Virus record (IMG/VR): IMGVR_UViG_3300009181_007169
Length of the DNA stretch: 22,976 nt
Strand: one strand, 5' to 3'
DNA from: an uncultured virus (IMG/VR IMGVR_UViG_3300009181_007169)
Lineage: Duplodnaviria; Heunggongvirae; Uroviricota; Caudoviricetes
This document shows, piece by piece, positions 2,726 to 18,558 of the stretch. How positions within the stretch are numbered: the stretch's first letter is position 1; every line of letters begins with the position of its first letter. A model generated the notes under the pieces. It saw only the letters and a program-made list of their open reading frames with translations, did not search any database and was not told where the DNA came from. A program made the position numbers and the translations under genes.

Positions 2726-2750
2726 TTGGATGGGCATTAAGCCCACCCAA
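2726..2750 (-). terminator. hairpin after the KTSC-like gene
   Basis: Minus strand TTGGGTGGGC-TTAAT-GCCCATCCAA (10 bp including one G-U), 5 nt after the stop; no clear U-tract. Confidence 0.5.
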
Positions 2751-2755
2751 TTCTG

Positions 2756-3025: not shown

Positions 3026-3139
3026 ATCTATTATAATCAGGATTTGTTATAAGTGGAAAAAATTTGCCGCCATCCCCTTGGAGGGGGAATGAATTTGTTA
3101 TAACTAGAAAAAAAATAAATGCAATCCCCTTGGAGGGGA

Positions 3140-3427
3140 TTATTTGAGCATTTTTGAAGGACACAATATGATATTTCCAACAATGTCATTGGTTGTTTTC
3201 CAACTTTCCTGATAGATTTTAGTGGCTATCGGATTGATAACATAGTCATCTTTCAGTCTGCCCTCCTCATCACCTATCATAATATTGTCTGCATCATTGA
3301 GATAAATTACCTCAATCATCTCACAGTCAAGTGCTTTGCAAAGCTCGGCAAGAGTAAAGTGGGTTCCGTTGGTTGGCTTGATTGGCTCTAAGGTGCCTTC
3401 TTTATTAAGTAAGAGTGCTGTACTCAT
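3140..3427 (-). CDS. DUF3846-like phage protein
   Basis: Start corrected to the repeat-supplied ATG at 3427; PTNGTHFTLAEL...IEVIYL...DEEGRL...NPIAT...IVGNIILC. Confidence 0.8.
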   Translation of the reverse strand: MSTALLLNKEGTLEPIKPTNGTHFTLAELCKALDCEMIEVIYLNDADNIMIGDEEGRLKDDYVINPIATKIYQESWKTTNDIVGNIILCPSKMLK

Positions 3428-3549
3428 ATCTATTATAATCAGCATTTGTTATAAGTGGAAATTTTTATTTTTATTAAAAATTTTTCCCCCTATTATAATC
3501 AGGATTTGTTATAAGTGGAAATTTGCCGCCGTCGGTCCCCCGGAGGGGA

Positions 3550-3777
3550 TTAATAATCATCGTATGTTTCACCATAGGACTCGTACTCAGCCCTTGTTCC
3601 CATCGGACGACCATGACCGCACTGGTCGCTGTACTTGCTTCGTGCACAATCTGTGCACATGACACCAGCATAAATGCCGTATGAAAATTGAAAGTCAATA
3701 GTTTTTGACTTTTTGTGGCACTCAGGGCAAACGCCCTCATCTAATACTTCTTGGAGATATCTGTATGGCAGACTCAT
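3550..3777 (-). CDS. small putative zinc-binding protein with acidic tail
   Basis: ATG from repeat 3775, stop abuts repeat 3485; CPEC and CTDC motifs. Confidence 0.8.
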   Translation of the reverse strand: MSLPYRYLQEVLDEGVCPECHKKSKTIDFQFSYGIYAGVMCTDCARSKYSDQCGHGRPMGTRAEYESYGETYDDY

Positions 3778-3839
3778 ATCTATTATAATCTGGATTTGTT
3801 ATAACTGGAAAAAACGGGCTGACTTCCCTTTGGAGGGGT

Positions 3840-4100
3840 TAACGACCCAAATAACAATTAAATAGGCTCCAGCAAGCTGAAGCCTTGGAGGTCGTAACCA
3901 ATCAATGTACATCTTATTTGGGAGCAACCCCAAAGAATGAACATCCGTTTGTGGGTGAGAGCATTTTTTTTGGTGTACTGGACTAATCTTGAAATAAACT
4001 GTGTTTATAACAATTTTGCTGTAATTATTACCAATCCGCCCCCAAGGGAGCCGTGTGAGAATTGAACTCACTAAATCCCAGAACTTTAATGCTCTTCCCA
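3840..4100 (-). ncRNA. candidate structured ncRNA with a permuted tRNA-like module
   Basis: Fills a cassette whose repeat lacks the ATG. T-arm GTGAG-TTCAATT-CTCAC (4055-4071), closed acceptor-like stem (4037-4053), terminal stem 4088-4099/3953-3965, G(CUUG)C hairpin (3864-3885). Confidence 0.6.
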
Positions 4101-4205
4101 ATCTATTATAATTTAGATTTGTTATAAGTGGAAAAACTCGCTGGCATCCCCTTGGAGGGGACTCGATTTTCGAATTATTCGATTTTTTTGATTCTGCCAC
4201 CGCTT

Positions 4206-4397
4206 TTAAGCGAGGGCAATAACACGGAAACCAGCTATTCGATTTCCATTATCCAATAAAATAGTATGAACATTGTGAGGCTTTTCACAGTTCAACTCTT
4301 CGCCTAAATGGTTAAACATTGACACAATCTGAGCAGTTGCCCTGTCACCTGAGTATTTTTGGTATTTGATTGAATCTCCTGGTTTCAATGCTTTCAT
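4206..4397 (-). CDS. small SH3/KOW-like protein
   Basis: ATG from repeat 4395; N-terminus MKALKPGDSIKY resembles 9085-9318 and 12934-13107. Confidence 0.8.
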   Translation of the reverse strand: MKALKPGDSIKYQKYSGDRATAQIVSMFNHLGEELNCEKPHNVHTILLDNGNRIAGFRVIALA

Positions 4398-4478
4398 ATA
4401 TATTATAATCTGGATTTGTTATAAATGGAAAAAACGGGCGGCGATCCCCTTAGAGGGGGAATCCTCTAAGATTTACTT

Positions 4479-4745
4479 TTAGAAGGGCAAGTCCATAGCT
4501 ATACTATCTAAGTGCTTAGTATACCTAATGCGGTCTTCTTCGCACATGGTCTTGCTAATCAAGTCCAGGATTTTGGAGTTGGACATAGGTGGGTGGGTGC
4601 GAACCATCGAATTACCTGACGAAGAAAAATCTGCGATAAGTTCATCGCTCTCGTCGTATACGCACAGGAAGTATTCCTGCAATGGTCGGTCGTAGCCAAA
4701 AGCCATTTCAAGTCCGTCTGTGGTAGTTGCAGTATATCTACTCAT
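4479..4745 (-). CDS. hypothetical phage protein
   Basis: ATG from repeat 4743; GYDRPLQEYFL motif. Confidence 0.85.
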   Translation of the reverse strand: MSRYTATTTDGLEMAFGYDRPLQEYFLCVYDESDELIADFSSSGNSMVRTHPPMSNSKILDLISKTMCEEDRIRYTKHLDSIAMDLPF

Positions 4746-4807
4746 ATCTATTATAATCAGATTGTGTTATAAGTGGAAAAAACGGGCTGGCATCCCTCTG
4801 GAGGGGA

Positions 4808-5515
4808 TTATTTATGAAGTTGCACAAGAAGGGACTCTAAACAATCAATGTCTGGTTTTTTTTCCTTAATTGAGCTGGGTAAATCTTCAAACATAATTTT
4901 TAAGTCTTGAATACCTTTTTCAATACCTTCTTCATGTTCTCTAATAAATTCTAAAGTAATATCTTCAATAGGCATGAGCTTAATTGACATCAGCTTATCA
5001 TGTAAAGATTGTGAGTAGTCTTTAACTACTGGTTCAAAAGTTCCAGTATTTAGGAGCTGGTCAGCTTGTGCCAATACTCTGTAAGCGGCGACAATCGACT
5101 TAGGTATTCTTCTTAAAGTGTTATCTTCGAATGGTTGTTGAGCATTTCTTAAATATCTTTTTAGTTGTGCTTCGGCGTAACCAATATGAGCTAACAAAAT
5201 CTTTCTTCCATCAAAAGCATAGTTAGGAATCATTCTGAGCATTTCTGAAAAATTATTCTTTTCATAAATTGGGGATTTAATAACTTCATACATGGTAGGA
5301 TTTCCTGAGGTGAGATGCTTAACAAAGTTTCTCAGCTCCCATGATTCAGTGTCTTCACCATTAGCTGATGCTGTTTTGGTATTGCTGTTGTTGAATGGCG
5401 ATACCAACTCTCTTATTGATAATCTGTAGATAAATCTAGCATCTTCATCAGACTGTGGCGTAGACAGACCGTGCATTTTACTTCCTACAGTTGCTTTGTA
5501 AATGATTTCGCTCAT
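4808..5515 (-). CDS. RlaP/YcgL-type nucleotidyltransferase (Pol-beta superfamily)
   Basis: Start corrected to the ATG at 5515 in repeat 5513. VGSKMHGLSTPQSDEDARFIY carries the GS..G....SD.D motif; WELRNFVKHLTSGNPTMYE is typical of the family. Confidence 0.85.
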   Translation of the reverse strand: MSEIIYKATVGSKMHGLSTPQSDEDARFIYRLSIRELVSPFNNSNTKTASANGEDTESWELRNFVKHLTSGNPTMYEVIKSPIYEKNNFSEMLRMIPNYAFDGRKILLAHIGYAEAQLKRYLRNAQQPFEDNTLRRIPKSIVAAYRVLAQADQLLNTGTFEPVVKDYSQSLHDKLMSIKLMPIEDITLEFIREHEEGIEKGIQDLKIMFEDLPSSIKEKKPDIDCLESLLVQLHK

Positions 5516-5580
5516 ATATCTATTATAATCAGATTGTGTTATAAGTGGAAAACACGGGCTGGCATCCCCCTGGAGGGGGA

Positions 5581-5793
5581 TTATTCCTCCTCCGCTGGTG
5601 GTGTGGCTAGTTCTACCTTGATTGCGTCCCATTGCTTTTGCGTGAAAATCACAAGGTCTTCACGGTGCAATGAATCAACATCGTTCTCAAAAGTCTCATC
5701 AAACCAAAGGTGCAAAGTTGCGGTTGACGATTCCACGCTATCAACCCTGCAATGGGCAGGGATTGGCACAAAATTTGTTTCTCGTTCAGTCAT
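5581..5793 (-). CDS. hypothetical protein
   Basis: Exactly fills the space between repeats 5791 and 5513. Confidence 0.8.
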   Translation of the reverse strand: MTERETNFVPIPAHCRVDSVESSTATLHLWFDETFENDVDSLHREDLVIFTQKQWDAIKVELATPPAEEE

Positions 5794-5863
5794 ATCTATT
5801 ATAATCAGATTGTGTTATAAATGGAAAAAACGGGCTGGCATCCCCCTGGAGGGGGATTGTGCA

Positions 5864-6034
5864 TCAATAGTCTCCATAATCGTCGTTGTCATATTGCTCA
5901 TCCATAAAGCAACAATTCTCTTCGTGTGTGTTGTAGTCGCCAGTGGCACATTGCATAGCGTCCCAATCACCGTATTCGTCATAGCCATAGTCGTAGTCTG
6001 ATTCTGTGTAATCGAAATAATCTTCTGGGTCCAT
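5864..6034 (-). CDS. very acidic Tyr-rich small protein (56 aa, not in ORF track)
   Basis: ATG from repeat 6032: MDPEDYFDYTESDYDYGYDEYGDWDAMQCATGDYNTHEENCCFMDEQYDNDDYGDY. Confidence 0.8.
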   Translation of the reverse strand: MDPEDYFDYTESDYDYGYDEYGDWDAMQCATGDYNTHEENCCFMDEQYDNDDYGDY

Positions 6035-6114
6035 ATCTATTATAATCTGGATTTGTTATAAGTGGAAAAAACGGGCTGCCATCCCCTTGGAGGGGGAATT
6101 GGTAAAGTGCTGAG

Positions 6115-6187
6115 CCTCTCCAAGAGGACTCGAACCTCCGACCCATTGCTTAGAAGGCAATTGCTCTTTCCACTGAGCTATGGAGAG
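6115..6187 (-). tRNA. tRNA-Arg(UCU)
   Basis: CTCTCCA/TGGAGAG acceptor, ATTGC-CTTCTAA-GCAAT, GGAGG-TTCGAGT-CCTCT; no encoded CCA; TGTATAAT just upstream. Confidence 0.95.
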
Positions 6188-6210
6188 GCTCAATCTCTAT
6201 AAATTATACA

Positions 6211-6345
6211 CTAAACTTCACAATCTAAAGTGCCTAGTGCCCAATTGTCATCAGAAACATCACAACATTGGTCACTATATTCATAATCATCTTCAAAGAA
6301 ATTAAGGACTAACCGAGAGTAAACGAAGTCATCTTCTGGGTTCAT
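6211..6345 (-). CDS. acidic small protein (44 aa, not in ORF track)
   Basis: TAATG overlap with the upstream stop; MNPEDDFVYSRLVLNFFEDDYEYSDQCCDVSDDNWALGTLDCEV; N-terminus resembles 5864-6034. Confidence 0.6.
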   Translation of the reverse strand: MNPEDDFVYSRLVLNFFEDDYEYSDQCCDVSDDNWALGTLDCEV

Positions 6346-6539
6346 TACCAATCACCTCGTGTTACATTGCGAGCTTCTGCACGATTATTACGACGTTCAG
6401 CTTTGCGTGAACTTTTATTGTGTATGCCAAAGCCTGAGTAACTTTGGTGACCAGTAGGTTGAAACATAGCCACTTCAACAATAGCTGTTTTGCCATTCAT
6501 TGTGATTGTCTTTTTGATTGTAGCTTTCTTTTTGCTCAT
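6345..6539 (-). CDS. small basic protein
   Basis: ATG from repeat 6537; K/R-rich. Confidence 0.8.
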   Translation of the reverse strand: MSKKKATIKKTITMNGKTAIVEVAMFQPTGHQSYSGFGIHNKSSRKAERRNNRAEARNVTRGDW

Positions 6540-6601
6540 ATAAATTATAATCTGGATTTGTTATAACTGGAAAAAACGGGCTGCCAACCCCCTGGAGGGG
6601 G

Positions 6602-6814
6602 TTACATACCTACCTTTTCCCAATATGGGTCATAAGCAAAAGCGATGTCATACCATTGACCGCCTTCTACTTGATTGGTAAAAGTAGTGATGTACAGGTC
6701 TTTCTTATACTTATTAACGATTGGGGTAGTTATTTCGTTAATTGGGACATAAAGGTCACTTTGCCAATTTTTGATAGTTGTGCCAGTTTCTTTGATTTCT
6801 TGATAGATGCTCAT
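6602..6814 (-). CDS. hypothetical phage protein
   Basis: Likely start at ATG 6814 (ATGA overlap with the upstream stop); WQSDLYVP...WYDIAFAYDPYW; stop abuts repeat 6537. Confidence 0.8.
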   Translation of the reverse strand: MSIYQEIKETGTTIKNWQSDLYVPINEITTPIVNKYKKDLYITTFTNQVEGGQWYDIAFAYDPYWEKVGM

Positions 6815-7008
6815 TTTTGTATTTTTCTCCACACTTGGTCAATAATATATCCTACAATCGGAGCCACTATTGAAAAAGTCATAGCTGTTTTTAGCCAATA
6901 AAGGGCGGCTTCTGGATGCGATGGCATACAAGCCAAAGCACACGTGAGAGGAAGAAAACCCGCAAGTGCCGATATAACTATGAGTGATTCTTTTGCTGAT
7001 TTGGTCAT
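6811..7008 (-). CDS. small two-TM membrane protein
   Basis: ATG from repeat 7006; two hydrophobic segments. Confidence 0.8.
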   Translation of the reverse strand: MTKSAKESLIVISALAGFLPLTCALACMPSHPEAALYWLKTAMTFSIVAPIVGYIIDQVWRKIQK

Positions 7009-7070
7009 ATCTATTATAATCTAGATTTGTTATAACTGGAAAAAACGGGCTGAGATCCCTTTGGAGGGGG

Positions 7071-7403
7071 TTATCTTCTTTTTATAACGCTTAGAATTTT
7101 TGACACTTGTTCATCTGTAAGCCTTGGGTCACGGTAACCAGAGAATGAGGAATAAATCAGAGCACCTGAAAGACTAGCTTTAACCTCTCTATCATATTCA
7201 GTTAAAAATACTTGTATATCTTCATCTCTAATTCTTTCAGTGATTGCAGGATTTTCGAGCCAATTTTGGGCATCCTCAAACTTAATGATGTCTGAATATA
7301 ACTTTCTACCAGTGTAGATGTGGCGACGAAAGTGCCCATTATCTAAAATAAACCCATAAAAATGCATTCGTTTCATTAAATCTTCTCTATCTTTAACTCT
7401 CAT
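7071..7403 (-). CDS. hypothetical protein
   Basis: Exactly fills the space between repeats 7401 and 7006. Confidence 0.85.
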   Translation of the reverse strand: MRVKDREDLMKRMHFYGFILDNGHFRRHIYTGRKLYSDIIKFEDAQNWLENPAITERIRDEDIQVFLTEYDREVKASLSGALIYSSFSGYRDPRLTDEQVSKILSVIKRR

Positions 7404-7494
7404 ATCTATTATAATCTGGATTTGTTATAAATGGAAAAAACGGGCTGACATCCCCTTGGAGGGGATTGGGCGAATTTCGCCCGAATGATTTCAT

Positions 7495-7800
7495 TTACCA
7501 GAAACACCATTCAACAAGATATGAAGAACCATAGTCACAGGTTTCGCACCCATCGCTGCTATATCGGTGACATTCGTCGCCATTCTCACAGCCTAAAATC
7601 TTAGCAATCTCAAGCAAGCCACTAAGCATTGTGTATGGTTCATTGAATTCAATATATCTGTACATTTGCTCTACTTCGATGAAATATTTGCCATCATTAA
7701 AACTGAACTTGAAGCTAGGTGGTTCAATTTCGCATTGATAAAATAATTTTTTGATTTGCTCTTGTTGAGTTTCTGTCATTGGTAAAAGATTCTTGCTCAT
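7495..7800 (-). CDS. hypothetical phage protein
   Basis: Preceded only by TATAAT-AGAT-ATG; C-terminal GCETCDYGS motif. Confidence 0.85.
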   Translation of the reverse strand: MSKNLLPMTETQQEQIKKLFYQCEIEPPSFKFSFNDGKYFIEVEQMYRYIEFNEPYTMLSGLLEIAKILGCENGDECHRYSSDGCETCDYGSSYLVEWCFW

Positions 7801-7805
7801 ATCTA

Positions 7806-8009
7806 TTATACTCCAGCCCCTCTTGCTTCATCCCAATCATCAAAAATGTCATCTTCAATCAAAGAAACAAAGTCCATAATTTCCTTTAATGTACGGATAA
7901 AATCTTTTTCATCAAATACTCCATTGCTGTCTGACATTAAAACAATTTTAGAAGAAATGTATGATTTCAAAACATCAATATTTTTGATTTGCTTAAGTGG
8001 TCCTACCAT
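7806..8009 (-). CDS. hypothetical protein
   Basis: ATG from repeat 8007. Confidence 0.8.
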   Translation of the reverse strand: MVGPLKQIKNIDVLKSYISSKIVLMSDSNGVFDEKDFIRTLKEIMDFVSLIEDDIFDDWDEARGAGV

Positions 8010-8078
8010 ATCTATTATAATCAGATTGTGTTATAACTGGAAAAACGGGCTGGCATCCCCTTGGAGGGGGATTGTTCT

Positions 8079-8597
8079 TTACTCAATAATGAGCGAATCT
8101 TCTGTGAACCAGTAAGTTCCCGATGGAGTACAAATACCTATTTCGCCCCACTTTACAGCATCAAATTTCATTTCTAACCAATAATTCAGCTCTCGTTCTA
8201 AACTAAGCTTGAAAGCATTAACAATTTCATTTTCATCTTCTTGAAAATTTTCAAAATTAATTTTATGCTCAAGGTTAAATGGCACAACTACTTCGATTGC
8301 ATTATTGGGTTTTACAAAGGACGGTAAAATTATATCATTATCAAAAAAGCGAACAATCTCGCCATTATCATAGCGATAACAAAAATTTCCCACAGGGAGT
8401 ATGTACTCTCCACTATGAAAAAAATCAAAAAATTCTTCGACAATTTTTTCAGATTCATCAACAAAAAAACCCTGAAGATTTTCATAAAAATCTTTCAACT
8501 GATTCTCAGATAATCCTGCTTTGTCAATATGTTCCTGCACGTTTTCAAGGCTAACAAATGAATTGATTTCAAATTTTTTTTCGCTTTGTTCTGTCAT
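8079..8597 (-). CDS. acidic two-domain protein, paralogous to 13807-14079 and 16375-16638
   Basis: ATG from repeat 8595; shares MTEQS...EI.S.V....I...GLSE...GE..L....Y...G.I pattern. Confidence 0.85.
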   Translation of the reverse strand: MTEQSEKKFEINSFVSLENVQEHIDKAGLSENQLKDFYENLQGFFVDESEKIVEEFFDFFHSGEYILPVGNFCYRYDNGEIVRFFDNDIILPSFVKPNNAIEVVVPFNLEHKINFENFQEDENEIVNAFKLSLERELNYWLEMKFDAVKWGEIGICTPSGTYWFTEDSLIIE

Positions 8598-8659
8598 ATC
8601 TATTATAATTAGAATTTGTTATAACTGGAAAAAATGGGCTGGCATCCCCTTGGAGGGGC

Positions 8660-8884
8660 TTAAGTTTTGATTTTCTTAAGTGTGTATGTTGCATCTACTT
8701 TAAGAATATCCCTTAATTTTTCGCACATCATTTTCCAATGCTTGGCGTCTTCCTTGGATTCAAAAAAATAGCTTTTGCTTTGTCCTTGTTTATTGCTTAC
8801 TACTTTGTACTGTGATAATTTGCTAATTTTGCCAACTCTCCTTGCAAGTATTGTACCCTTCATTGTATACTCTTCTTTGCTCAT
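8660..8884 (-). CDS. basic hypothetical protein (start uncertain)
   Basis: Stop abuts repeat 8595; 5' part overlaps the upstream gene. Confidence 0.55.
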   Translation of the reverse strand: MSKEEYTMKGTILARRVGKISKLSQYKVVSNKQGQSKSYFFESKEDAKHWKMMCEKLRDILKVDATYTLKKIKT

Positions 8885-9014
8885 CTGTCCATCTTGGGTC
8901 TAGTTGTCTGCTCCAACCATAGGAAGCATGAGATTCGCCAAAATATCGGCAAACTTCAAGGGGTGTGTTTGATTGGTCTCCGTTGTAAAATCTTACTTCA
9001 AATGGGTTACTCAT
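8823..9014 (-). CDS. hypothetical protein, paralogue of the partial gene at the window end
   Basis: ATG from repeat 9012; GWSRQLDPRWTDEQRRVYNEGYN. Confidence 0.85.
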   Translation of the reverse strand: MSNPFEVRFYNGDQSNTPLEVCRYFGESHASYGWSRQLDPRWTDEQRRVYNEGYNTCKESWQN

Positions 9015-9084
9015 ATCTATTATAATCTGGATTTGTTATAAATGGAAAAAACGGGCTCGCTCCCCCTTGGAGGGGGAAGTGAAT

Positions 9085-9318
9085 CTAATCTATTGGACTA
9101 ACTTGATAAGCCCAACCCCAATGACCATTGTCAAGGTCAAAAATAAAACTATGACCATCTTCAAGTTTAGAAAAATTCATTTCTTCAACAGAAGTGCCAT
9201 TGTGTTTATTACCTTGAGAAACACCTGCAACAATACCAGTAACTTTAGCCACTACTGGAGCATTTTGACCCCAGCCTCCTTTGTAAATTACTTTGTCTCC
9301 TACTTTAATTGTTTTCAT
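9085..9318 (-). CDS. small SH3/KOW-like protein
   Basis: ATG from repeat 9316; MKTIKVGDKVIY...DLDNGHW. Confidence 0.85.
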   Translation of the reverse strand: MKTIKVGDKVIYKGGWGQNAPVVAKVTGIVAGVSQGNKHNGTSVEEMNFSKLEDGHSFIFDLDNGHWGWAYQVSPID

Positions 9319-9380
9319 ATCTATTATAATCAGATTGTGTTATAACTGGAAAAAACGGGCTGGCATCCCCCTAGAGGGGG

Positions 9381-9623
9381 TTATCCTTCATCCTCATTAT
9401 TTTCATCATCCTCCAAAACAATAGCCCAGAGTACCATATCTGCACCTTCATCGTCAATAGGTGGCATTGCATTAAATGAAGCCCAATCCATGTCTAAGAA
9501 TTTCCAATCATTTTTACTGTATGGTAAATCGGTTTCAGGGTTGATGTCTACATCTTCTTTGACAAAAATATATTTTGGAAGTTTTGAGTAAAATTCATTG
9601 TGCTTGATTGTTCTTAGTTTCAT
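9381..9623 (-). CDS. acidic hypothetical protein
   Basis: Exactly fills the space between repeats 9621 and 9316. Confidence 0.85.
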   Translation of the reverse strand: MKLRTIKHNEFYSKLPKYIFVKEDVDINPETDLPYSKNDWKFLDMDWASFNAMPPIDDEGADMVLWAIVLEDDENNEDEG

Positions 9624-9718
9624 ATTTATTATAATCAGATTGTGTTATAACTGGAAAAAACGGGCTGACATCCCCTTGGAGGGGGATTGGAGCTGGAAAC
9701 AGGACTCGAACCCGCGAC

Positions 9719-10120
9719 CTAGTTTCTCTGCGACCTTCCCTTCCCACGGTTTGAATTCTTATATGTTGGTGTCAAAGAATCACAACATCCACATAATAAT
9801 CTTAAATTTGATTCTGTATTGTTTTTCCAATCACCATCAATATGGTCAGCAACTAATGGAACCTTTCCAGTATATATATTGAGTTTAGACCAACCACATT
9901 GAATACACTTGTTGTCAAACTTTTCGCGTAAATAACGCTTTACATGTGAATTCACATTACCTAATGCGTTCAATCCATCAACATCGCCACATTTCCACTG
10001 TCTGATATAATCGGCATACTGCCAATCTAATTGACATTGTTGACAACAGTATTTATTAGGTTTTCGTGGCACAGGCTTACCACAATGCAGGCAAGGTTTT
10101 TGTTCTACTCTTCGACTCAT
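9719..10120 (-). CDS. HNH endonuclease (putative free-standing homing endonuclease)
   Basis: CIQCGW...VPLVADHIDGDWKNNTESNLRLLCGCCDSLTPTY plus N-terminal CLHC...YCCQQC; inserted inside a tRNA gene. Confidence 0.9.
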   Translation of the reverse strand: MSRRVEQKPCLHCGKPVPRKPNKYCCQQCQLDWQYADYIRQWKCGDVDGLNALGNVNSHVKRYLREKFDNKCIQCGWSKLNIYTGKVPLVADHIDGDWKNNTESNLRLLCGCCDSLTPTYKNSNRGKGRSQRN

Positions 10121-10173
10121 AATAGAGTCTTATGTAGTAGACCATCTTTCACCTGCATTATGGTCTACAAATC

Positions 10174-10255
10174 TGGAGCCGAGTAGGAGAATCGAACTCC
10201 TTCTGATTTCTCGGTAGTTTACAAAACTACTGCTATCCCAATTAGCGAACTCGGC
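10174..10255 (-). tRNA. tRNA-Thr(UGU) with extended variable region
   Basis: GCCGAGT/ACTCGGC acceptor, GTAGT-TTTGTAA-ACTAC, 12-nt variable region, AGGAG-TTCGATT-CTCCT, T-CCA. Confidence 0.85.
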
Positions 10256-10288
10256 TTACTTGCTCTATCGCTGAGCTAATCCAGCTTA

Positions 10289-10363
10289 TGGCTGACACCA
10301 TAGGATTCGAACCTATAACCCCTTCGTTAACAGCGAAAAGCTCTACCGTTGAGCTAGGTGTCA
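10289..10363 (-). tRNA. tRNA-Asn(GUU)
   Basis: TGACACC/GGTGTCA acceptor, TTTCG-CTGTTAA-CGAAG, ATAGG-TTCGAAT-CCTAT, G-CCA. Confidence 0.95.
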
Positions 10364-10369
10364 GTATGT

Positions 10370-10445
10370 TGGCGACCCATGAGGGGATTGAACCCTCCGT
10401 CTCCGCCGTGACAGGGCGGCAACTCCACCAGTTGTCCTATGAGCC
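10370..10445 (-). tRNA. tRNA-Asp(GUC)
   Basis: GGCTCAT/ATGGGTC acceptor, CCGCC-CTGTCAC-GGCGG, T-loop TTCAATC, G-CCA. Confidence 0.95.
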
Positions 10446-10454
10446 ATAACACTA

Positions 10455-10712
10455 TTATACATCAAAAATTACACCTTTACCTTCAGCAAGTTCTTTGCCA
10501 GTTTGCAAGCGATTGCCATTAGGAGTTAAGTTCTCTTGCTCTGGATAAGTAGCATGCTCGATAACTTTGACAAACTTGTAGTAAGTGCCATTTGGCTTGC
10601 ATGCACCTTCTACTAGAGGAGCTACTGCTTCAAAAAACGCTTTTAGCTCTTCAGGAGTAAAAATTACTTCTGTATTTGCAAGTTTGATTTTGATGTACTT
10701 GATAGTTTCCAT
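10455..10712 (-). CDS. hypothetical protein
   Basis: ATG from repeat 10710. Confidence 0.8.
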   Translation of the reverse strand: METIKYIKIKLANTEVIFTPEELKAFFEAVAPLVEGACKPNGTYYKFVKVIEHATYPEQENLTPNGNRLQTGKELAEGKGVIFDV

Positions 10713-10774
10713 ATCTGTTATAATCTGGATTTGTTATAACTGGAAAAAACGGGCTGGCATCCCCCTGGAGGGGA

Positions 10775-10978
10775 TTACACAATCTGATGGTTTTTAAGAT
10801 ATTTTTTCACATATTCATCAACTTCTTCACTTGTGGGCTTTTCATAGAATGGCTCACCTAAACTTATACAATCATTATCGAGGTACAATTCATAATAGCA
10901 AGTATCATCTTCTTCAATGAAGTCTATTTCAATGATATACCCTACAACATTTTGTATTCCTACAGAAGTTTGTCTCAA
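10775..10978 (-). CDS. acidic hypothetical protein
   Basis: TTG start 1 nt after the upstream stop, with GGAG before it; stop abuts repeat 10710. Confidence 0.7.
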   Translation of the reverse strand: MRQTSVGIQNVVGYIIEIDFIEEDDTCYYELYLDNDCISLGEPFYEKPTSEEVDEYVKKYLKNHQIV

Positions 10979-10979
10979 G

Positions 10980-11228
10980 TTACTCTCCTTGACCTACGCT
11001 CATGATGTCGTTAATCAAAGAAGGTTGTACTTTCTCATCATTGCTGGAAATTATTTCCGAAAAATCAATCATTGATAAAACTGATGAACAATCAGCAATT
11101 TGTTTCGCCGCCGCACTTCGAGCAGAGTCTGTTTTCAGATACGGAAAAACATTGATAAGCACATTGACAAGTGTTTGGTTCAATACTTTTGCGTCTTCAA
11201 TTAAAAGTTTGTCTGTGTTTTCGTTCAT
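10980..11228 (-). CDS. hypothetical protein
   Basis: ATG from repeat 11226. Confidence 0.8.
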   Translation of the reverse strand: MNENTDKLLIEDAKVLNQTLVNVLINVFPYLKTDSARSAAAKQIADCSSVLSMIDFSEIISSNDEKVQPSLINDIMSVGQGE

Positions 11229-11299
11229 ATTTATTATAATCAGTTTGTGTTATAACTGGAAAAAACGGGCTCTCATCCCCTTGGAGGGGATTTGGTGAC

Positions 11300-11650
11300 T
11301 TACGTCACCACCATTTCACACACTACAGAAGTGGAACAGATTCCTCTTTGAATTTGGGTGCCTGAGTTAACAAATGGGCTTTTAACCTTTACCTTTGCAG
11401 TACCTTCAGGTAGCAAATAAGTATTTGCTGAAACAAAATCTTTATGTGAAGTTTCAACTCGGCTCTTCCCAATGCTGGTGTTCCATTGAGAATTTTTCTG
11501 GCGAGACGAGATTAGCTTGTTTCTCTTATCATAGTAGAACACTTCGCTTTTAGCTTCACCAGTGGTGAGATAATTTTCGATTTCGTTAATTTGTTCTTTA
11601 AGGAACAGATGAGTTGTGATTGCTTTTTGATATAGTTTTGATGTTGGCAT
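11300..11650 (-). CDS. basic hypothetical protein (leadered)
   Basis: Repeat 11707 lacks an ATG at the usual position; AAGGA-AAAAACT-ATG at 11650 gives MPTSKLYQ... Confidence 0.7.
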   Translation of the reverse strand: MPTSKLYQKAITTHLFLKEQINEIENYLTTGEAKSEVFYYDKRNKLISSRQKNSQWNTSIGKSRVETSHKDFVSANTYLLPEGTAKVKVKSPFVNSGTQIQRGICSTSVVCEMVVT

Positions 11651-11786
11651 AGTTTTTTCCTTGTACCAATCTTTACCAGAATCTTTTGGCTGTCTGAAAG
11701 CGGGTACATTTATTATAATCTGCATTTGTTATAACTGGAAAAAATCTGCTGCCGCCCCCTTGGAGGGGGTATGATACACTAAAATT

Positions 11787-12503
11787 TTAGTGTATCATAA
11801 TTGTTACGTTAGAGTGTAAGTTAGACCGTGTACCTGAGCAAGCCATACACTTAAAGCAAGTAGTTACTTTACCCTTTTCTTTACTAGCGGGACACCAAGC
11901 TAATTTAATACCTTCAACCGAATTATCAGCTAATTCAAAGCTATCAATATTCTGTACATAGAACGTGCGGTAACCTTTAGCGGTAGACTGAATAACATCA
12001 ATAGGCGTATCGCAGGAAGCCATACAATATTCAGCGTATCTTTCGCTACAGTCTCGCCATTGGTGAGTATAGCCAGTAGACTTACAATACTTACATAATT
12101 CATCCCAAACCTCAATAGGAACTGAAGCTGGGTCACCGTAAGCACCTAAACGAATACGGGTTCCGTCTAATAGTTTAGCTAAATCAGATAGGTTGGGTTT
12201 TTCATAACCGTTATTGATAAACTTTTGCCATATTGCATTAAATGACATAACGTTTACATAGCAAGTTCTAGACCACTTTCTTAAAGCATCGACACCTAAA
12301 ACTTTAGGGCGGTGAATACAACCACCACAGATAGAAAAGTCAGCACCAGTACGCAAAGCGTCTTGTGGGTGCATATCAGACCTAAATATCCAAACTTGTG
12401 GCATCTCTCCAGTCTTGCTATTCTTGGACTTGGCATCAAGCCCAGTTAAAATTGCCACAATCGGCTGTCCATCTATTAAACTTTCTCCTTGGTAGATAAT
12501 CAT
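11787..12503 (-). CDS. conserved Cys-rich phage protein (gp88-like, putative Fe-S/radical-SAM-related)
   Basis: SKNSKTG...SICGGCIHR...TCYV, RLGAYGDP, GYTHQWR, CPAS...CFKCMAC; family assignment from memory. Confidence 0.7.
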   Translation of the reverse strand: MIIYQGESLIDGQPIVAILTGLDAKSKNSKTGEMPQVWIFRSDMHPQDALRTGADFSICGGCIHRPKVLGVDALRKWSRTCYVNVMSFNAIWQKFINNGYEKPNLSDLAKLLDGTRIRLGAYGDPASVPIEVWDELCKYCKSTGYTHQWRDCSERYAEYCMASCDTPIDVIQSTAKGYRTFYVQNIDSFELADNSVEGIKLAWCPASKEKGKVTTCFKCMACSGTRSNLHSNVTIMIH

Positions 12504-12564
12504 ATCTATTATAATCTGTATTTGTTATAAGTGGAAAAAATCGGCTGACATCCCCCTGGAGGGG

Positions 12565-12870
12565 TTATTTAGACCAAGCATTCCCACCTTTACGCCAGTC
12601 AAAAGTTTTACACATTAAACGTGATACTTCTGACTGATTTACATTAAAATGTTCACATAATCCATATAAGTTATCTTCAAGCTCATCAGCAGAGCCTAAA
12701 AAATTCCCATCAGCAATTAAATAGCCGTCAGAAGTAATACTTATACCGCCTATTGCTGGTTGTATTTTTCTATCCTTGTAAGGAATGTTTTCAAGACATT
12801 CATAAAAAGCTACCATTTTAGGTGATCCAAGAAGTGAAAAGTCATGATTGTATATATCTAACAGTGTCAT
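12565..12870 (-). CDS. hypothetical protein
   Basis: Exactly fills the space between repeats 12868 and 12501. Confidence 0.85.
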   Translation of the reverse strand: MTLLDIYNHDFSLLGSPKMVAFYECLENIPYKDRKIQPAIGGISITSDGYLIADGNFLGSADELEDNLYGLCEHFNVNQSEVSRLMCKTFDWRKGGNAWSK

Positions 12871-12933
12871 ATCTATTATAATCAGATTGTGTTATAAATG
12901 GAAAAAACGGGCTGACATCCCCTTGGAGGGGGT

Positions 12934-13107
12934 TTAGAAAAATACTAAATCTTTTCTCATAATATTTTCAAAATGTTTTTCGATTTTACAAACATAAATT
13001 TCGTATTTTCCAGACCACATATCTACTACAACCAGTTCTTTACCATGTAAATTTTTTCTAACAGAACCAATATACTTTACTTTATCTCCACGCTTAAATG
13101 TTTTCAT
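12934..13107 (-). CDS. small SH3/KOW-like protein (57 aa, not in ORF track)
   Basis: SD AAGGAG then MKTFKRGDKVKYIG...RKDLVFF; stop abuts repeat 12868. Confidence 0.75.
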   Translation of the reverse strand: MKTFKRGDKVKYIGSVRKNLHGKELVVVDMWSGKYEIYVCKIEKHFENIMRKDLVFF

Positions 13108-13687
13108 TTTTTTCTCCTTGAATTAGTGAATTATAACCCTTTAACACTTGAGTGCCTAGCCATACATCATAAGAAGCTGTATGAGCCAAATCATCATTCA
13201 CTTCTACGCCAAAATACTTTGCCATGTTACTAAGTGATAAAGATTGTTCTATTGGAATAATCCCAAGCATCTTAAAGTTATTGCCTAAAGTAGTAAGTTC
13301 AATTGGATTGCGTACAGTATTCATATCCCATGCTTTTTGTGAGATTGTGTATTTTGTAATCAATTCAATATCTCTTTTTATGCCGTTGCCAAATGGCAGA
13401 AGTTTACCATACTTTTCTTTTGATTCTGAGAGCCAATTAAAAATAATTCTTTTTGAATCCCTGTAAGGTATTGCTTCTAAATCATGCTTACCTAAATCAA
13501 TACCATTAACACGTAATGCTTCACCTTGAACAAAAAATTCTGTGCGAGAATCAACTGGGTCTGGTTTTACCTTCAAATCTAAAGTGCTAACGATTTCATA
13601 ATTCTCAACAATACTCAATGTTAGCGTGAGTAGGTCGTAATCTGTGGTAATCCCACCTGATTCTGTATCAATTCCTAAAAGTGTCAT
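13094..13687 (-). CDS. DEDDh (DnaQ-like) 3'-5' exonuclease
   Basis: Start corrected to ATG 13687; ExoI GIDTESGG, ExoII GNGIKRD, ExoIII AHTASYDV. Confidence 0.85.
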   Translation of the reverse strand: MTLLGIDTESGGITTDYDLLTLTLSIVENYEIVSTLDLKVKPDPVDSRTEFFVQGEALRVNGIDLGKHDLEAIPYRDSKRIIFNWLSESKEKYGKLLPFGNGIKRDIELITKYTISQKAWDMNTVRNPIELTTLGNNFKMLGIIPIEQSLSLSNMAKYFGVEVNDDLAHTASYDVWLGTQVLKGYNSLIQGEKNENI

Positions 13688-13806
13688 ATATATTATACGC
13701 TCAGATTGTGAAACCTGGAAAAACAATCTGAAGTTTGTGTAAGGGGTTTGTCAACCCCCTACACAAAATTTTTTGAAATATTTGGTTAGATTATAGCGTT
13801 GCCAAC

Positions 13807-14079
13807 CTAACACTCATATTTGTTGGCTACGATTCTCCCCTCGCTCATTAGGTAGCTACCCAATTCCCCGAAAAGTTCCTCTTCACCGTTCTTTATATTT
13901 TGCAATAATAGGTTGGTAGACTTATGAAGTTCCTCTTCAAGATAACCTCTCAAAGTATTCAAAATGTCTAAACTTTGTGGCTGGTTCAACCCCGTAAAAT
14001 TGATAGCTTGATTGATGTCATCGTAGCTAAGGTGGATAGTGACGGTTAAGAGTGTGTTGAAGTTAGTTGTTTGTTCCAT
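13807..14079 (-). CDS. hypothetical protein, paralogue of 16375-16638
   Basis: ATG from repeat 14077; YDDINQAINFTGL...SYLMSEGRIVANK. Confidence 0.85.
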   Translation of the reverse strand: MEQTTNFNTLLTVTIHLSYDDINQAINFTGLNQPQSLDILNTLRGYLEEELHKSTNLLLQNIKNGEEELFGELGSYLMSEGRIVANKYEC

Positions 14080-14146
14080 GTTTATTATAATTAGATTGTG
14101 TTATAAGTGGAAAAACAATCTGAAGACCCTGTGAGGGGTTTTTACA

Positions 14147-14332
14147 CTATTTTTGAACTTCTTGTTCAAGAATGTATAATTCATATTCATCGTAAAATTG
14201 TATATAATAGCCATTTCTCTCGTATTCGTTTTGAGCGTTAATCGCAGCCTCTTTTGTTGCGTAAACTCCAAGTAATATTTCTTTCTCTCCGTAAAGGCAA
14301 ATTATCAAAATGTAAACGTTGTTTTGTTCCAT
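14147..14332 (-). CDS. small phage protein
   Basis: ATG from repeat 14330; VYIL...LLGVYATKEAA motif. Confidence 0.8.
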   Translation of the reverse strand: MEQNNVYILIICLYGEKEILLGVYATKEAAINAQNEYERNGYYIQFYDEYELYILEQEVQK

Positions 14333-14416
14333 GTTTATTATAATCTGGATTTGTTATAACTGGAAAAAACGGGCTGACACCCCCCTGGAGGGGATTTGGG
14401 CAAAATTGCCCGAATC

Positions 14417-14815
14417 TTACCACCAACTTGAGTAGAGAACATCGTAGCCTTCTTTTATGGCTTTGCGTGATGCTTGTATGAAGTCTAGGTCATCTTTGAG
14501 ATAACCTTCTGTATTCCCTGAACCAAAGAAAAACCCTACTGTCTCAGGCAGTTTCTTATTTATCACTGCTTGTTCAAGGTTGTCCAAGTCCTTTTCATCA
14601 AGTTTGATGCAAACGCAGTTGAACTCTTCTTCTCCACCTCTTTCGTAATAAAGATTTTCCATGAAACCTTGGAGGTCGTGATGCTTTCTCCAGTAGAAAA
14701 AGTGTCTGTCGTATTCGTGCAAAGGTTCCCCTTTCTCTTCATTCCAGAGTTTAATGTCGATTGTGTCTTCAACAAGACCCTTTTTAATTTTGTAAGCGTA
14801 TTGGTCTAATCCCAT
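14417..14815 (-). CDS. conserved phage protein of unknown function
   Basis: ATG from repeat 14813; MGLDQY...YWRKH..LQGFM...FNC...GFFFG...YSSWW. Confidence 0.85.
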   Translation of the reverse strand: MGLDQYAYKIKKGLVEDTIDIKLWNEEKGEPLHEYDRHFFYWRKHHDLQGFMENLYYERGGEEEFNCVCIKLDEKDLDNLEQAVINKKLPETVGFFFGSGNTEGYLKDDLDFIQASRKAIKEGYDVLYSSWW

Positions 14816-14929
14816 ATCTATTATAATCAGATTGTGTTATAACTGGAAAAACGGGCTGGCATCCCCTTGGAGGGGATTAAAATTTATCCTTGAATTCGTT
14901 GATGAAATCTTCAGATTCTATTTTATTTC

Positions 14930-15418
14930 TCAAAATAGCCCCCCAATCCACGTTCCCTTATAATCTGCAAATTCTTTGTTGAACTCTTCAGAAAGTGTTT
15001 GTTTAGCTGAAATCTCATCCCAATCCACACGATTTTCAAATTCGCGAATGAACTCTTCAGACAGTTTTTGATATCCTGAAATTTTCTCCCAATTCACAAG
15101 GTCTTCGAACTCACGAATGAACTCTTCAGACAATGTTTGGTATTCTGAAATAAAATACCAATTCACACGACCTTTGAACTCACGAATAAAATCCTCAGAC
15201 AGTGTTTGGCAAGATGAAATCCAACGCCAATTTAACCTATCTTTGAATTCACGAATGAACTCTTCAGACAATGTTTGGTAGTATGAAATCTCATTCCAGT
15301 CCACACTGTCTGCATATTTACGAATGAAATCCTCAGACAGTTTTGGATGTTGTGAAATTTGTTTCCAGCCCACACGGGGTGTCACAGTATATTTATCGAT
15401 TAACTCTTGATCGGTCAT
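14930..15418 (-). CDS. tryptophan-repeat protein, last repeat frameshifted
   Basis: Six 22-aa (66-nt) units W..IS.YQ(T/K)LSEEFIREF...V(N/D); a further unit continues in another frame to TAA 14877-14879. Confidence 0.9.
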   Translation of the reverse strand: MTDQELIDKYTVTPRVGWKQISQHPKLSEDFIRKYADSVDWNEISYYQTLSEEFIREFKDRLNWRWISSCQTLSEDFIREFKGRVNWYFISEYQTLSEEFIREFEDLVNWEKISGYQKLSEEFIREFENRVDWDEISAKQTLSEEFNKEFADYKGTWIGGLF

Positions 15419-15479
15419 GTTTATTATAATCAGATTGTGTTATAAGTGGAAAAACGGGCTGACATCCCCTTGGAGGGGG

Positions 15480-15638
15480 TTATCTGGTGATAACAATTTT
15501 GGCATCTTCAATCTTGCTTTTTTTAATCCAAGATTTTAGAGCTTTTTCAGCTTGTTGAATACTAGGATATTCTAGTTTATAGTCATGCCCATTGCAAGTA
15601 AATCTTAACAAACAAGGTCTAGCATTAGGATGTGGCAT
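15480..15638 (-). CDS. small hypothetical protein (52 aa, not in ORF track)
   Basis: GAGGTGG-AAA-ATG; MPHPNARPCLLRFTCNG...KIVITR; stop abuts repeat 15416. Confidence 0.65.
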   Translation of the reverse strand: MPHPNARPCLLRFTCNGHDYKLEYPSIQQAEKALKSWIKKSKIEDAKIVITR

Positions 15639-15897
15639 TTTCCACCTCTAATCTTATTGCTTTTCCATTTTCCCATCGATAATTAACCTCATCACCTGAA
15701 ACACATGGAGCATAGAACTTTACCAAAGTCCATCGCCCTTTAAGATCTTTACAATATTCCTCGCATTCTTCTTGTGTGGAAAACCTTAAACCATTGGTGC
15801 TGTAATCATAGGAATCTGTCGTCACATAGGGAGCCCACGATTTTCTCTGACCTTGGGCGTTCAAATTTTCGATTTCTTTTAATGTTTTATATGTCAT
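15625..15897 (-). CDS. hypothetical phage protein
   Basis: ATG from repeat 15895; NGLRFST.EE...Y..DL..RW...VNYRW. Confidence 0.85.
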   Translation of the reverse strand: MTYKTLKEIENLNAQGQRKSWAPYVTTDSYDYSTNGLRFSTQEECEEYCKDLKGRWTLVKFYAPCVSGDEVNYRWENGKAIRLEVENATS

Positions 15898-15963
15898 ATC
15901 TATTATAATTAGTTTATGTTATAAGTGGAAATTTATCGCCGCCATTCTCCCGGAGGGGATTAT

Positions 15964-16293
15964 TTACATTTCCTCCAAGGGATAATAAGCAACAAGTTGG
16001 AGCGTTTCATTTGGTTCCGCACGTACCTCAATTTTATAAAATTTATCTCCTAAAGACACTATAACGTTTTGAATATACCATACCCAGCTTTCAAAATATT
16101 CATCATACAAATCTAAATCGTCATAAGGGTTTGTATTTTTCAAAAATGAATCAATTTTCAAGAAATACTCAGTGTCTGATTCATGTTCAGGAACTATATG
16201 TACTTTGTCACGAATTTTTTCGAAAAAAGTCAAAGCATTTTTTACGAAAGCTCCTTCTGCCGCGAGAGCTATTTGTATGCAAAACATTTCCAT
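15964..16293 (-). CDS. hypothetical protein
   Basis: Lies between repeats 16291 and 15895. Confidence 0.85.
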   Translation of the reverse strand: MEMFCIQIALAAEGAFVKNALTFFEKIRDKVHIVPEHESDTEYFLKIDSFLKNTNPYDDLDLYDEYFESWVWYIQNVIVSLGDKFYKIEVRAEPNETLQLVAYYPLEEM

Positions 16294-16374
16294 ATTTATT
16301 ATAATTAGATTGTGTTATAACTGGAAAAAAAGACTGTGATGCTCTTAGAGGGGGTATTTGCCCCTCTAATCTTT

Positions 16375-16638
16375 TTACCAGATTTTGTTTTTAATAAGTT
16401 TACCTTCTACCATCTGGTAACTATGGCTTCCTGTATACAACTCTACATCACCACTTGCAATATAACTCATGTAATAATCTATAGCATTATCAATTTCATG
16501 CTCTAAATTATCTTTTAGATGAATAAGAATTTCTTGTTTTTCTTCTTCAGATAATCCTTCAAAGTTAATACAGTCACTGATTGCGTCATAGTCAACTTTA
16601 GATAAGATTTCGATTGTGCAGTTACTTTGTTCAGTCAT
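16375..16638 (-). CDS. acidic hypothetical protein, paralogue of 13807-14079
   Basis: ATG from repeat 16636; YDAISDCINFEGL...SYQMVEGKLIKNK. Confidence 0.85.
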   Translation of the reverse strand: MTEQSNCTIEILSKVDYDAISDCINFEGLSEEEKQEILIHLKDNLEHEIDNAIDYYMSYIASGDVELYTGSHSYQMVEGKLIKNKIW

Positions 16639-16716
16639 GTCTATTATAATTAGATTGTGTTATAACTGGAAAAAATCTGCCGTCGCCCCCACAGAGGGGG
16701 AACAAGTGTTTCATGA

Positions 16717-16800
16717 CCCACATACTGGGGGCGGTGCAGGTTCTCCCTGCACACCATAGCTTGTTCTAGGTCTGGGACAGGCTCAACCCCGCACCTGCCC
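16717..16800. other. GC-rich structured intergenic element
   Basis: Stems 16734-16740/16746-16752 and 16758-16768/16773-16783, plus competing long stem 16729-16742/16785-16800. Confidence 0.45.
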
Positions 16801-16809
16801 ACTCGTGAC

Positions 16810-17121
16810 TTACGCTACTTGGACACTCCCAGAGATTTTGTCGCAAGTAACAATTAGGTTACTGGTTCTGAGACCAAACTTGTAAGCTGGAACCCGAATG
16901 GCTCCATCTTTTTCGATTGTGTAGGTATGGTCGTATTTAACGCCATTTTCTACTGGGACGATAGTCACAGACCCCGTTCCAAGCACAGCAACCTTTTGAC
17001 CTGGTTGAAAGCCAATATGTCGAGTGCCAGCTACTGGAATTCTCACACGGGTGCGTGAGCCAGTCTTGGAATTGAAGTCTACTGCGAATTTGTTAAGTGT
17101 GTGATTAAACATTTTTTTCAT
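16810..17121 (-). CDS. tandem AbrB/SpoVT-like putative DNA-binding protein
   Basis: RVRIPV....GFQPGQKVAV...SVTIVP and TIEKDGAIRVP..FGL; leadered with SD AAGGAG. Confidence 0.6.
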   Translation of the reverse strand: MKKMFNHTLNKFAVDFNSKTGSRTRVRIPVAGTRHIGFQPGQKVAVLGTGSVTIVPVENGVKYDHTYTIEKDGAIRVPAYKFGLRTSNLIVTCDKISGSVQVA

Positions 17122-17216
17122 TTCTCCTTGAGTTGTTTCTTACACCTATTATAATTGGGATTTGTTATAAGTGGAAAAAATTTGCCGCCACCCCCTTGGA
17201 GGGGGTTTTGACCATT

Positions 17217-18550: not shown

Positions 18551-18558
18551 CTTATCAA

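Follow-up and report, generated by a model that had tools for sequence, protein, structure and literature searches.

We find that the two ends of a threonine transfer RNA (tRNA-Thr) gene in a phage genome lie apart, separated by an insert that carries a complete tRNA-Thr gene of its own together with an open reading frame (ORF) for an HNH endonuclease. The locus lies in a stretch of 22,976 nt from an uncultured virus of the Caudoviricetes (IMG/VR record IMGVR_UViG_3300009181_007169), here called the window, whose source is a large freshwater phage. We consider it likely that the insert is a free-standing homing-endonuclease cassette, made up of its own tRNA-Thr(UGU), a hairpin and the HNH gene, which occupies the position of the anticodon arm in the phage's resident tRNA-Thr(UGU) gene. 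This reading is carried by the anatomy of the locus, an intact orthologue in a related phage, the absence of an intron, the link of the HNH family to tRNA-Thr genes and the presence/absence polymorphism of the insertion.

What the broken gene once was can be read from a related phage. When IMG/VR was searched for an exact 25-nt stretch of the outer gene's 5′ half, one contig matched, a 347-kb relative (locus L006, here G001) that is 99% complete by the database tool's figure. Directly behind the same tRNA-Asp and tRNA-Asn genes that precede the outer gene in the window, G001 has an intact 75-nt tRNA-Thr(TGT) gene, the only tRNA-Thr in the 60 kb of it that were examined. The two phages differ at 3 of 160 nt from tRNA-Asp through the TAA spacer, and BLASTN gives 98.4% identity to G001 for window positions 10446–10260. 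As G001 has an intact tRNA-Thr(UGU) at the same place, we read the outer gene as a former tRNA-Thr(UGU) gene; a preliminary description of the locus, made from the sequence letters, had fixed beforehand that the intact orthologue should be a tRNA-Thr, and it is. No relative of the HNH gene was found in G001 (0 matches at E ≤ 10), nor were the inner tRNA and the hairpin, and an exact search of IMG/VR with the tRNA-Asn pattern again matched only G001.

All genes of the window are on the minus strand, from which the layout is read (Table 1). The coordinates and the description of the locus given in the preliminary description are correct on this strand, with 534 nt (10257–9724) between the halves as it drew them. 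The 5′ half (10285–10258) begins GCTGGAT and the 3′ half (9723–9688) ends TTCCAGC, T, CCA. Six of the seven acceptor-stem pairs form between them, and pair 7–66, T–A in G001, is a T·T mismatch; a script search picked out the 3′ remnant as an orphan T arm, with the 5′ partner of its acceptor strand 570 nt upstream. By its sequence the outer gene is dead, the whole anticodon loop being gone from both flanks. Three anticodon-stem pairs, AGT/ACT, had been taken as intact; G001 has ACCGC/GCGGT at this place, and this claim stands for pair 27–43, which the intact gene also has, but not for the other two, which are absent from it and cannot be shown to be remnants. Because only pair 27–43 is common to the intact gene, the target is seen by this comparison to have lost 11–16 nt.

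The two halves had been described as matching halves of one tRNA. They do match more than by chance, and the 5′ half is found exactly in G001, but they probably stem from two alleles. The 5′ remnant is identical to the G001 gene at 26 of 26 nt (L006 1501–1526) and diverges from the next base, while the 3′ remnant is identical at 24 of 33 nt, sharing AGGTC, TCCAGC and TCCA, with most of the changes in the T arm. Had the left half decayed as fast as the right, the chance of finding its 26–27 nt unchanged would be about 2 in 10,000. These unequal identities and the T7·T66 mismatch therefore indicate that the halves are probably chimeric, and most likely they represent two alleles of one tRNA-Thr(UGU) gene family, the 3′ one having arrived with the cassette. 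Such a chimera fits homing with co-conversion rather than refuting it: the identical left flank and the divergent right flank are what a donor-derived right flank would give, although the donor sequence was not found in IMG/VR. By eye, the T arm and acceptor strand of the 3′ remnant are closest, among the tRNAs collected, to the HNH-linked tRNA-Thr(TGT) of locus L115, which is weak evidence.

At the left junction the letters TAA of GTAA repeat the spacer between the CCA of tRNA-Asn and the outer tRNA, and may derive from the donor's spacer. At the right, the TAG stop codon of the HNH ORF (9721–9719) comes from the old tRNA's 3′ part as had been claimed, its T belonging to ACT and its AG to AGGTC. 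A 7-nt repeat, AGGTCGC, occurs at 9737–9731 and 9720–9714; it was considered as junction microhomology and explains nothing as it stands. The unit of ORF85, tRNA-Asp, tRNA-Asn, 5′ remnant, inner tRNA, HNH ORF and 3′ remnant appears to be a single transcript, running from the promoter-like module at ~10748–10710 to the terminator at 9687–9660. A further promoter-like match, TTTCCA-18-TATAAT, is found at 9657–9628. When the region was compared by BLASTN with 50,697 phage records, the only match was tRNA-Asn, at 84%.

Could the insert be an intron, or be removed by tRNA processing and ligation, so that the outer tRNA is functional? We regard this as very improbable, and by sequence it is already close to refuted. 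The preliminary description had seen no group I core and proposed a non-splicing insert, and this holds: Rfam gave no match to a group I intron or other ribozyme at E ≤ 10 over 9000–11000, and ARAGORN, allowing introns up to 900 nt, called only three ordinary tRNAs and no outer tRNA. A group I intron with an endonuclease ORF was thus rejected, there being no ribozyme core and no anticodon loop in either flank; as the loop is absent, even exact excision could not restore the outer tRNA. What speaks for an intron comes from distant members of the HNH family (32–33% identity) in loci L128 and L129, which occupy an intron-like position within a tRNA(TCA)-like gene. There the anticodon loop is intact and the HNH comes immediately behind it, with the stem's return strand beyond the insert (L129 1640–2480, L128 1690–2500), so that exact excision would restore the tRNA, unlike in the window. 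An integrase-driven element at a tRNA gene was also considered and rejected, as the insert has no integrase ORF and no direct repeat of the tRNA end; the HNH ORF is the sole ORF of at least 60 aa on its coding (minus) strand.

Other arrangements of tRNA genes around this family were noted in passing. In L123–L126 a tRNA(tca) call ends 4 nt inside the ORF start. About 60–100 nt 5′ of the HNH gene, several Patescibacteria loci (L025, L028, L058 (1141–1407), L060, L068, L089, L095 and about ten more) have a 180–208-nt insertion in the anticodon loop of a tRNA whose acceptor and anticodon stem are those of tRNA-Thr(GGT). ARAGORN gives this insertion inconsistent positions; 12 other loci have an uninterrupted tRNA-Thr(GGT) at the same place. 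Since these insertions have no Rfam match even at E ≤ 1, we do not call them group I introns.

The replacement gene within the insert had been described as an intact but divergent tRNA-Thr(UGU), and both ARAGORN and Rfam call it (51.7 bits against a gathering score of 29, E = 1.1e-9). It has a cloverleaf, the anticodon UGU, G1–C72, C2–G71 and an encoded CCA. From work in E. coli, G1–C72 and C2–G71 are identity elements of tRNA-Thr, and the inner tRNA may be charged with threonine. It is the only intact tRNA-Thr that ARAGORN finds in the window, and is presumed to be a working replacement. It is unlike the intact gene of G001 at nearly every stem position of the anticodon arm, and its variable region is 12 nt instead of the usual 4–5 nt, which is unusual for a class I tRNA-Thr. 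With this different anticodon stem and variable region, the inner tRNA probably lacks the nuclease site, and its gene may thus be immune to the HNH enzyme.

Across the related loci, four distinct HNH-linked tRNA-Thr(TGT) genes, that of the window among them (Table 1), reach 82–89 nt through variable regions of 12–16 nt, again unusual for the class; the remaining HNH-linked tRNA-Thr genes are of normal length. The long variable regions may remove a nuclease site, or may defend against host tRNA nucleases.

The 9-bp hairpin that had been noted between the inner tRNA and the HNH gene folds as drawn, and a 76-nt stretch around it has z = −3.27, with 0 of 200 shuffles folding as well. Locus L020 has a hairpin with the same AGACC core upstream of its HNH gene. 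A smaller hairpin of 5 bp encloses the HNH start codon (ATG 10120–10118), and its fold makes it a possible brake on translation.

The HNH ORF matches PHROG 1271, 'HNH endonuclease', at E = 2.3e-13. Its nearest solved chain by sequence is I-HmuI (PDB 1u3e), a marginal match (E = 0.29). A protein search found 731 relatives among 734 candidates. The four closest (P0001–P0004) are 73–84% identical and 132–137 aa long; P0001, P0003 and P0004 stop at the same codon as the HNH of the window, which hints at the same layout there, and P0002 is 4 residues longer. Hundreds of relatives at about 60% identity occur in Patescibacteria and have a C-terminal end longer by 17–20 residues. The motif of the HNH / His-Me finger class (D/H-H…N…N/H framed by CxxC pairs) is present, and in 17 sequences eight cysteines (two CxxC pairs at each end), D92–H93, N100, N101 and N105 are invariant. 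With an open ORF and invariant predicted catalytic and zinc-binding residues, the nuclease looks alive. It is the only HNH of its family in the window, as tblastn below E = 1 gave this ORF alone.

Both forms of the locus exist in nature. Beside G001, with its intact tRNA-Thr and no HNH gene, further sequencing data bear on this point: 24 public runs hold part of the window, and five freshwater runs, among which the source may be, hold 93–97% of it. We compared contigs of four other runs, from other studies (X6, X8, X10 and X11), taking stretches without cover as uninformative. Contigs from X6 and X11 span the left and the right junction, respectively, and one from X8 lies inside the cassette (Table 1). 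In X10 and X11 there are also contigs that match tRNA-Asp, tRNA-Asn and the outer 5′ part and whose match ends exactly at 10260; the one in X11 continues with an intact anticodon arm of the G001 type and is covered at a depth of 113, the cassette contig at 9.7. Broken and unbroken alleles thus occur in the same lake sample (X11), a setting in which homing would act. The cassette variant in X11 has differences at 10159, in the hairpin loop, and at 10135, outside the 9-bp hairpin, and its listed differences in the HNH ORF are 4 silent and 4 conservative. A joint in X10 connecting 9720 and 10326 has 21 letters on its shorter side and was set aside, since the T arms of tRNAs resemble one another; in X6 and X8, loose ends at 9720 were likewise put down to other tRNAs sharing the common T arm. 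The cassette contig of X6, from tRNA-Asp to the outer 5′ part, has 71 other letters in place of tRNA-Asn (10289–10363), which suggests further exchange of single tRNA genes in the cluster.

Table 1. Features of the interrupted tRNA-Thr locus, contigs of other runs aligned to it, and HNH-linked tRNA-Thr(TGT) genes with long variable regions (positions are those of the window unless a locus is named)
Feature	Position	Strand	Size	Basis or remark
Promoter-like repeat-module copy	~10748–10710	minus		5′ of ORF85
ORF85	10712–10455	minus	85 aa	
tRNA-Asp(GTC)	10445–10370	minus		ARAGORN and Rfam; conserved left flank of target site
tRNA-Asn(GTT)	10363–10289	minus		ARAGORN and Rfam; conserved left flank of target site
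Spacer TAA		minus		after tRNA-Asn, before outer 5′ remnant
5′ remnant of resident tRNA-Thr(UGU)	10285–10260	minus	26 nt	acceptor 5′ strand, D arm, first anticodon-stem base (tRNA positions 1–27)
Insert	10259–9721	minus	539 nt	between 5′ and 3′ remnants
Left junction GTAA	10259–10256	minus	4 nt	read from sequence
Inner complete tRNA-Thr(UGU)	10255–10174	minus	82 nt	ARAGORN; Rfam; long variable region
9-bp hairpin, 14-nt loop	10168–10137	minus		fold; between inner tRNA and HNH gene
5-bp hairpin	10129–10114	minus		fold; HNH start codon in loop and 3′ arm
Predicted HNH (His-Me finger) endonuclease ORF	10120–9719	minus	133 aa	ORF; PHROG 1271
3′ remnant of tRNA-Thr(UGU)-type gene	9720–9688	minus	33 nt	variable loop AGGTC, T arm, acceptor 3′ strand, discriminator T, CCA
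Terminator hairpin, T run and promoter-like module	9687–9621	minus		ends unit and opens next gene (ATG 9623); repeat-family member
Contig of run X6	9977–10296			99% identity; spans left junction
Contig of run X8	9728–10163			99% identity; inside cassette
Contig of run X11	9699–10199			96% identity; spans right junction
tRNA-Thr(TGT), L020	L020 1546–1631		86 nt	long variable region
tRNA-Thr(TGT), L115 and L116	2372–2460		89 nt	long variable region
tRNA-Thr(TGT), L117 and L119	1917–1999		83 nt	long variable region

A search for the tRNA-Thr plus HNH unit elsewhere had been proposed, and the pairing does recur. A scan of GTDB genomes gave 292 relatives, of which we took the best 80 loci, nearly all from Patescibacteria. 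In 76 of these, the start of a same-strand tRNA-Thr(CGT) falls within −38 to +47 nt of the ORF's end; two of the other four are at a contig edge, one has a tRNA-Tyr and one is different. In 33 loci the ORF overlaps the first 10 nt of the tRNA, so that the stop codon falls on tRNA positions 8–10; these Patescibacteria ORFs have no stop of their own and run into the tRNA, as the ORF of the window runs into the old 3′ part. Among 33 related loci in IMG/VR, 16 have a tRNA-Thr(TGT) directly beside the ORF (8 downstream, 8 upstream), all within the 20 loci of at least 39% identity, and the remaining loci lie beside other tRNAs or none. The order of the window, tRNA-Thr followed by HNH, is that of 8 of the 33 (L105–L108, L117–L119 and L121) and also of the phages XbC2, Kpn_B01 and Jada, and as judged from gene order it is a recurring module. 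A metagenome scan gave only L019, which is the contig of the window itself and identical to it, and L020, where the stop codon of a 53% identical ORF overlaps base 1 of a tRNA-Thr(TGT).

Matches were found in 51 records of cultured phages, six of which we examined, and in five of these a tRNA-Thr directly adjoins the ORF: Enterococcus phage iF6 (L134), Streptomyces phage Jada, Xanthomonas phage XbC2, T5-like coliphage HdH2 and Klebsiella phage Kpn_B01 (L139). In Synechococcus phage RN05-S (L136) it lies between tRNA-Asn and tRNA-Val. By gene neighbourhood, then, this HNH family is tied to tRNA-Thr genes, which is a new association; a limited literature search found no description of the pairing of HNH and tRNA-Thr in Patescibacteria. 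The deposited records of iF6 (L134 701–1099) and RN05-S (L136 701–1057) leave the open HNH ORFs unannotated, and in Kpn_B01 a sequence resembling tRNA-Gly(TCC), likewise unannotated and seen by eye, overlaps the ORF end.

Such a regular association could also mean that the HNH has been domesticated, or is beneficial, and works with tRNA-Thr genes, for example by making breaks that drive recombination or amplification of tRNA clusters against host defences that target tRNA, the nested scar being a by-product. The high conservation and the fixed position next to tRNA-Thr(CGT) in Patescibacteria agree with this, and so does a 2026 report that the endonuclease SegB of phage T4 promotes amplification of anti-defence tRNA loci (PMC13096335). 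Against such a role, the distribution across related genomes is patchy: of 151 genomes sampled from a single Patescibacteria order, 21 have the gene at E ≤ 1e-20, a figure to be read with the incompleteness of metagenome-assembled genomes in mind. The sister phage G001 does without the gene, and relatives occur in phages of unrelated hosts. As a beneficial role would still need the same site-specific cutting, it would be an added benefit and not a different mechanism; as an explanation that stands by itself we think it improbable.

For the homing cassette that we favour, the following course of events can be proposed. When a phage with the cassette and one without it infect the same cell, the HNH enzyme would cut or nick the intact tRNA-Thr(UGU) gene of the latter, within or close to the anticodon arm, where the scar suggests that the break lay. 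Repair from a cassette-bearing genome would copy the nuclease gene and the linked tRNA, and this repair, or the founding event, would have left both ends of the resident gene in place in this lineage. The outer gene would then be a dead scar whose job is taken over by the inner tRNA. The precursor transcript of the tRNAs would yield only small amounts of the HNH enzyme; a promoter search found no consensus promoter between the tRNAs and the HNH ORF on the minus strand, which, with the start codon held in the 5-bp hairpin, fits such a low level. More tentatively, and with rather less than even confidence, we suggest that the HNH lineage as a whole may be a dedicated parasite of tRNA-Thr genes in phages and the ultra-small Patescibacteria, a natural 'cleave and rescue' drive that cuts the anticodon-arm region and owes its spread to a tight linkage with a recoded tRNA-Thr resistant to its cut, with the expanded variable regions as a change that gives immunity and the nested scar marking the cut site.

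Several points weigh against the homing reading. Cleavage of the intact allele, the position of the cut and the immunity of the inner gene are what we infer. The loss of 11–16 nt in place of a clean insertion is not what textbook homing predicts and calls for a founding event that was imprecise. Exact searches of IMG/VR with the inner tRNA and with the 3′ remnant gave 0 matches each elsewhere, and so no free-cassette donor is known. Among the loci examined, the nested layout was seen only in this lineage; around the upstream-type cassettes of L105–L108, L117, L118, L121, L135, L137 and L139 no nested scars were found. The match of the ORF to Pfam HNH_3 (E = 9e-4, 19.2 bits) lies below the cut-off of 24.8 bits, and the even split (4:4) between silent and replacement changes that the X11 variant shows speaks only weakly for selection. 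The identity of about 60% and the fixed position in Patescibacteria could, as said, also mean a domesticated host function. Finally, genes have been heavily reshuffled between the window and G001, whose protein genes are 65–80% identical and stand in scrambled order, so that recombination that is not targeted is common here.

This last point leads to a further explanation, namely that a segment with tRNA-Thr and HNH entered the resident tRNA-Thr by accident, through illegitimate or homeologous recombination between two tRNA-Thr genes, the HNH being a passenger, perhaps inactive, that made no cut. The wide difference in gene order despite the protein identity, the nucleotides lost from the target and the donor not found in IMG/VR are all in line with such an accident. 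The breakpoints, on the other hand, lie inside a tRNA gene and outside the repeat modules, which with up to 41 copies would be the likelier places for shuffling, the HNH family stands beside tRNA-Thr far more often than by chance (76/80, 16/33 and 5/6 in the three sets above), and the ORF is intact with invariant catalytic residues. We therefore judge an accidental rearrangement to be rather unlikely.

The closest known setting is that of SegB of T4, a free-standing GIY-YIG homing endonuclease encoded in the tRNA cluster of that phage, which recognises a motif of the T-psi-C stem-loop of tRNA genes (PMC2330249). SegB spreads with neighbouring tRNA genes in mixed infection while markers of the recipient's tRNA region are lost, and its expression, from the precursor transcript of the tRNAs, is assumed to be low (PMC2330249). 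Like the cassette, it is a nuclease gene among phage tRNA genes; unlike it, SegB is of the GIY-YIG and not the HNH type and sits between genes, and the part of the source consulted describes no broken target enclosing it. The F-Tfl enzymes are HNH-type ORFs inside a phage tRNA cluster and resemble the cassette by their setting, with no nested or split tRNA reported in the portion of the source consulted. The T5-like phages HdH2 and Kpn_B01 carry relatives of the HNH of the window (32–37% identity) directly beside tRNA-Thr.

Intron-encoded HNH enzymes of the I-HmuI type (PDB 1u3e) share with the cassette a position inside the presumed target gene, where the insertion splits the site. The cassette differs in that it has no ribozyme and the host gene is not restored; a second, complete gene supplies the function. 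Elements that integrate into tRNA genes carry a duplicate of the tRNA end that they displace. They resemble the cassette in having a tRNA gene as target and in keeping a working tRNA, whereas the cassette has no integrase ORF, brings a whole different tRNA and leaves the old gene unrebuilt. In synthetic 'cleave and rescue' drives and in intronless homing with a resistant linked allele, a nuclease destroys a needed gene while a linked, recoded copy is not cut. The logic of the cassette would be the same, with the differences that it is natural, is found in a phage and would use tRNA genes for the target as well as for the rescue; cutting and resistance are those proposed above. A limited literature search found no description of an HNH gene and a spare tRNA-Thr nested in a split tRNA-Thr.

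Homing endonucleases that lie inside needed genes are thought to survive there by way of a self-splicing intron or an intein. The same problem seems to be solved here without splicing, as the gene is broken and a spare is brought along. If the HNH enzyme cuts the intact allele, the cassette would be a natural counterpart of the engineered cleave-and-rescue drives, and would explain the swapping of tRNA genes between phages, with the scar revealing the site of the cut. The link between HNH and tRNA-Thr in Patescibacteria, seen in 76 of 80 loci, is a large pattern. We point out that dead tRNA halves such as those described here can mislead the annotation of tRNA genes.

Two families of repeats were seen elsewhere in the window. 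A module of about 65 nt, present in up to 41 copies over 2672–20029, precedes almost every small gene (for example at 9621–9687 and 10710–10776) and consists of a G+C hairpin, a T run and a conserved promoter-like stretch of 40 nt ending in TATAAT, with an ATG 4–5 nt later, so that the mRNAs look leaderless. As 40 conserved bases exceed the need of a sigma-70 promoter, it is possible that the module is a signal for a phage-specific polymerase. It recurs in G001, where it makes up most of the 79 matches between the window and G001, chiefly at 27–68 kb. In addition, a 69-nt unit (23 codons) is repeated in tandem five to six times at 14913–15376, inside an ORF of 162 aa; a related stretch lies near the start of the window at 563–750, and similar repeats are found in G001 at about 70, 74 and 76 kb.

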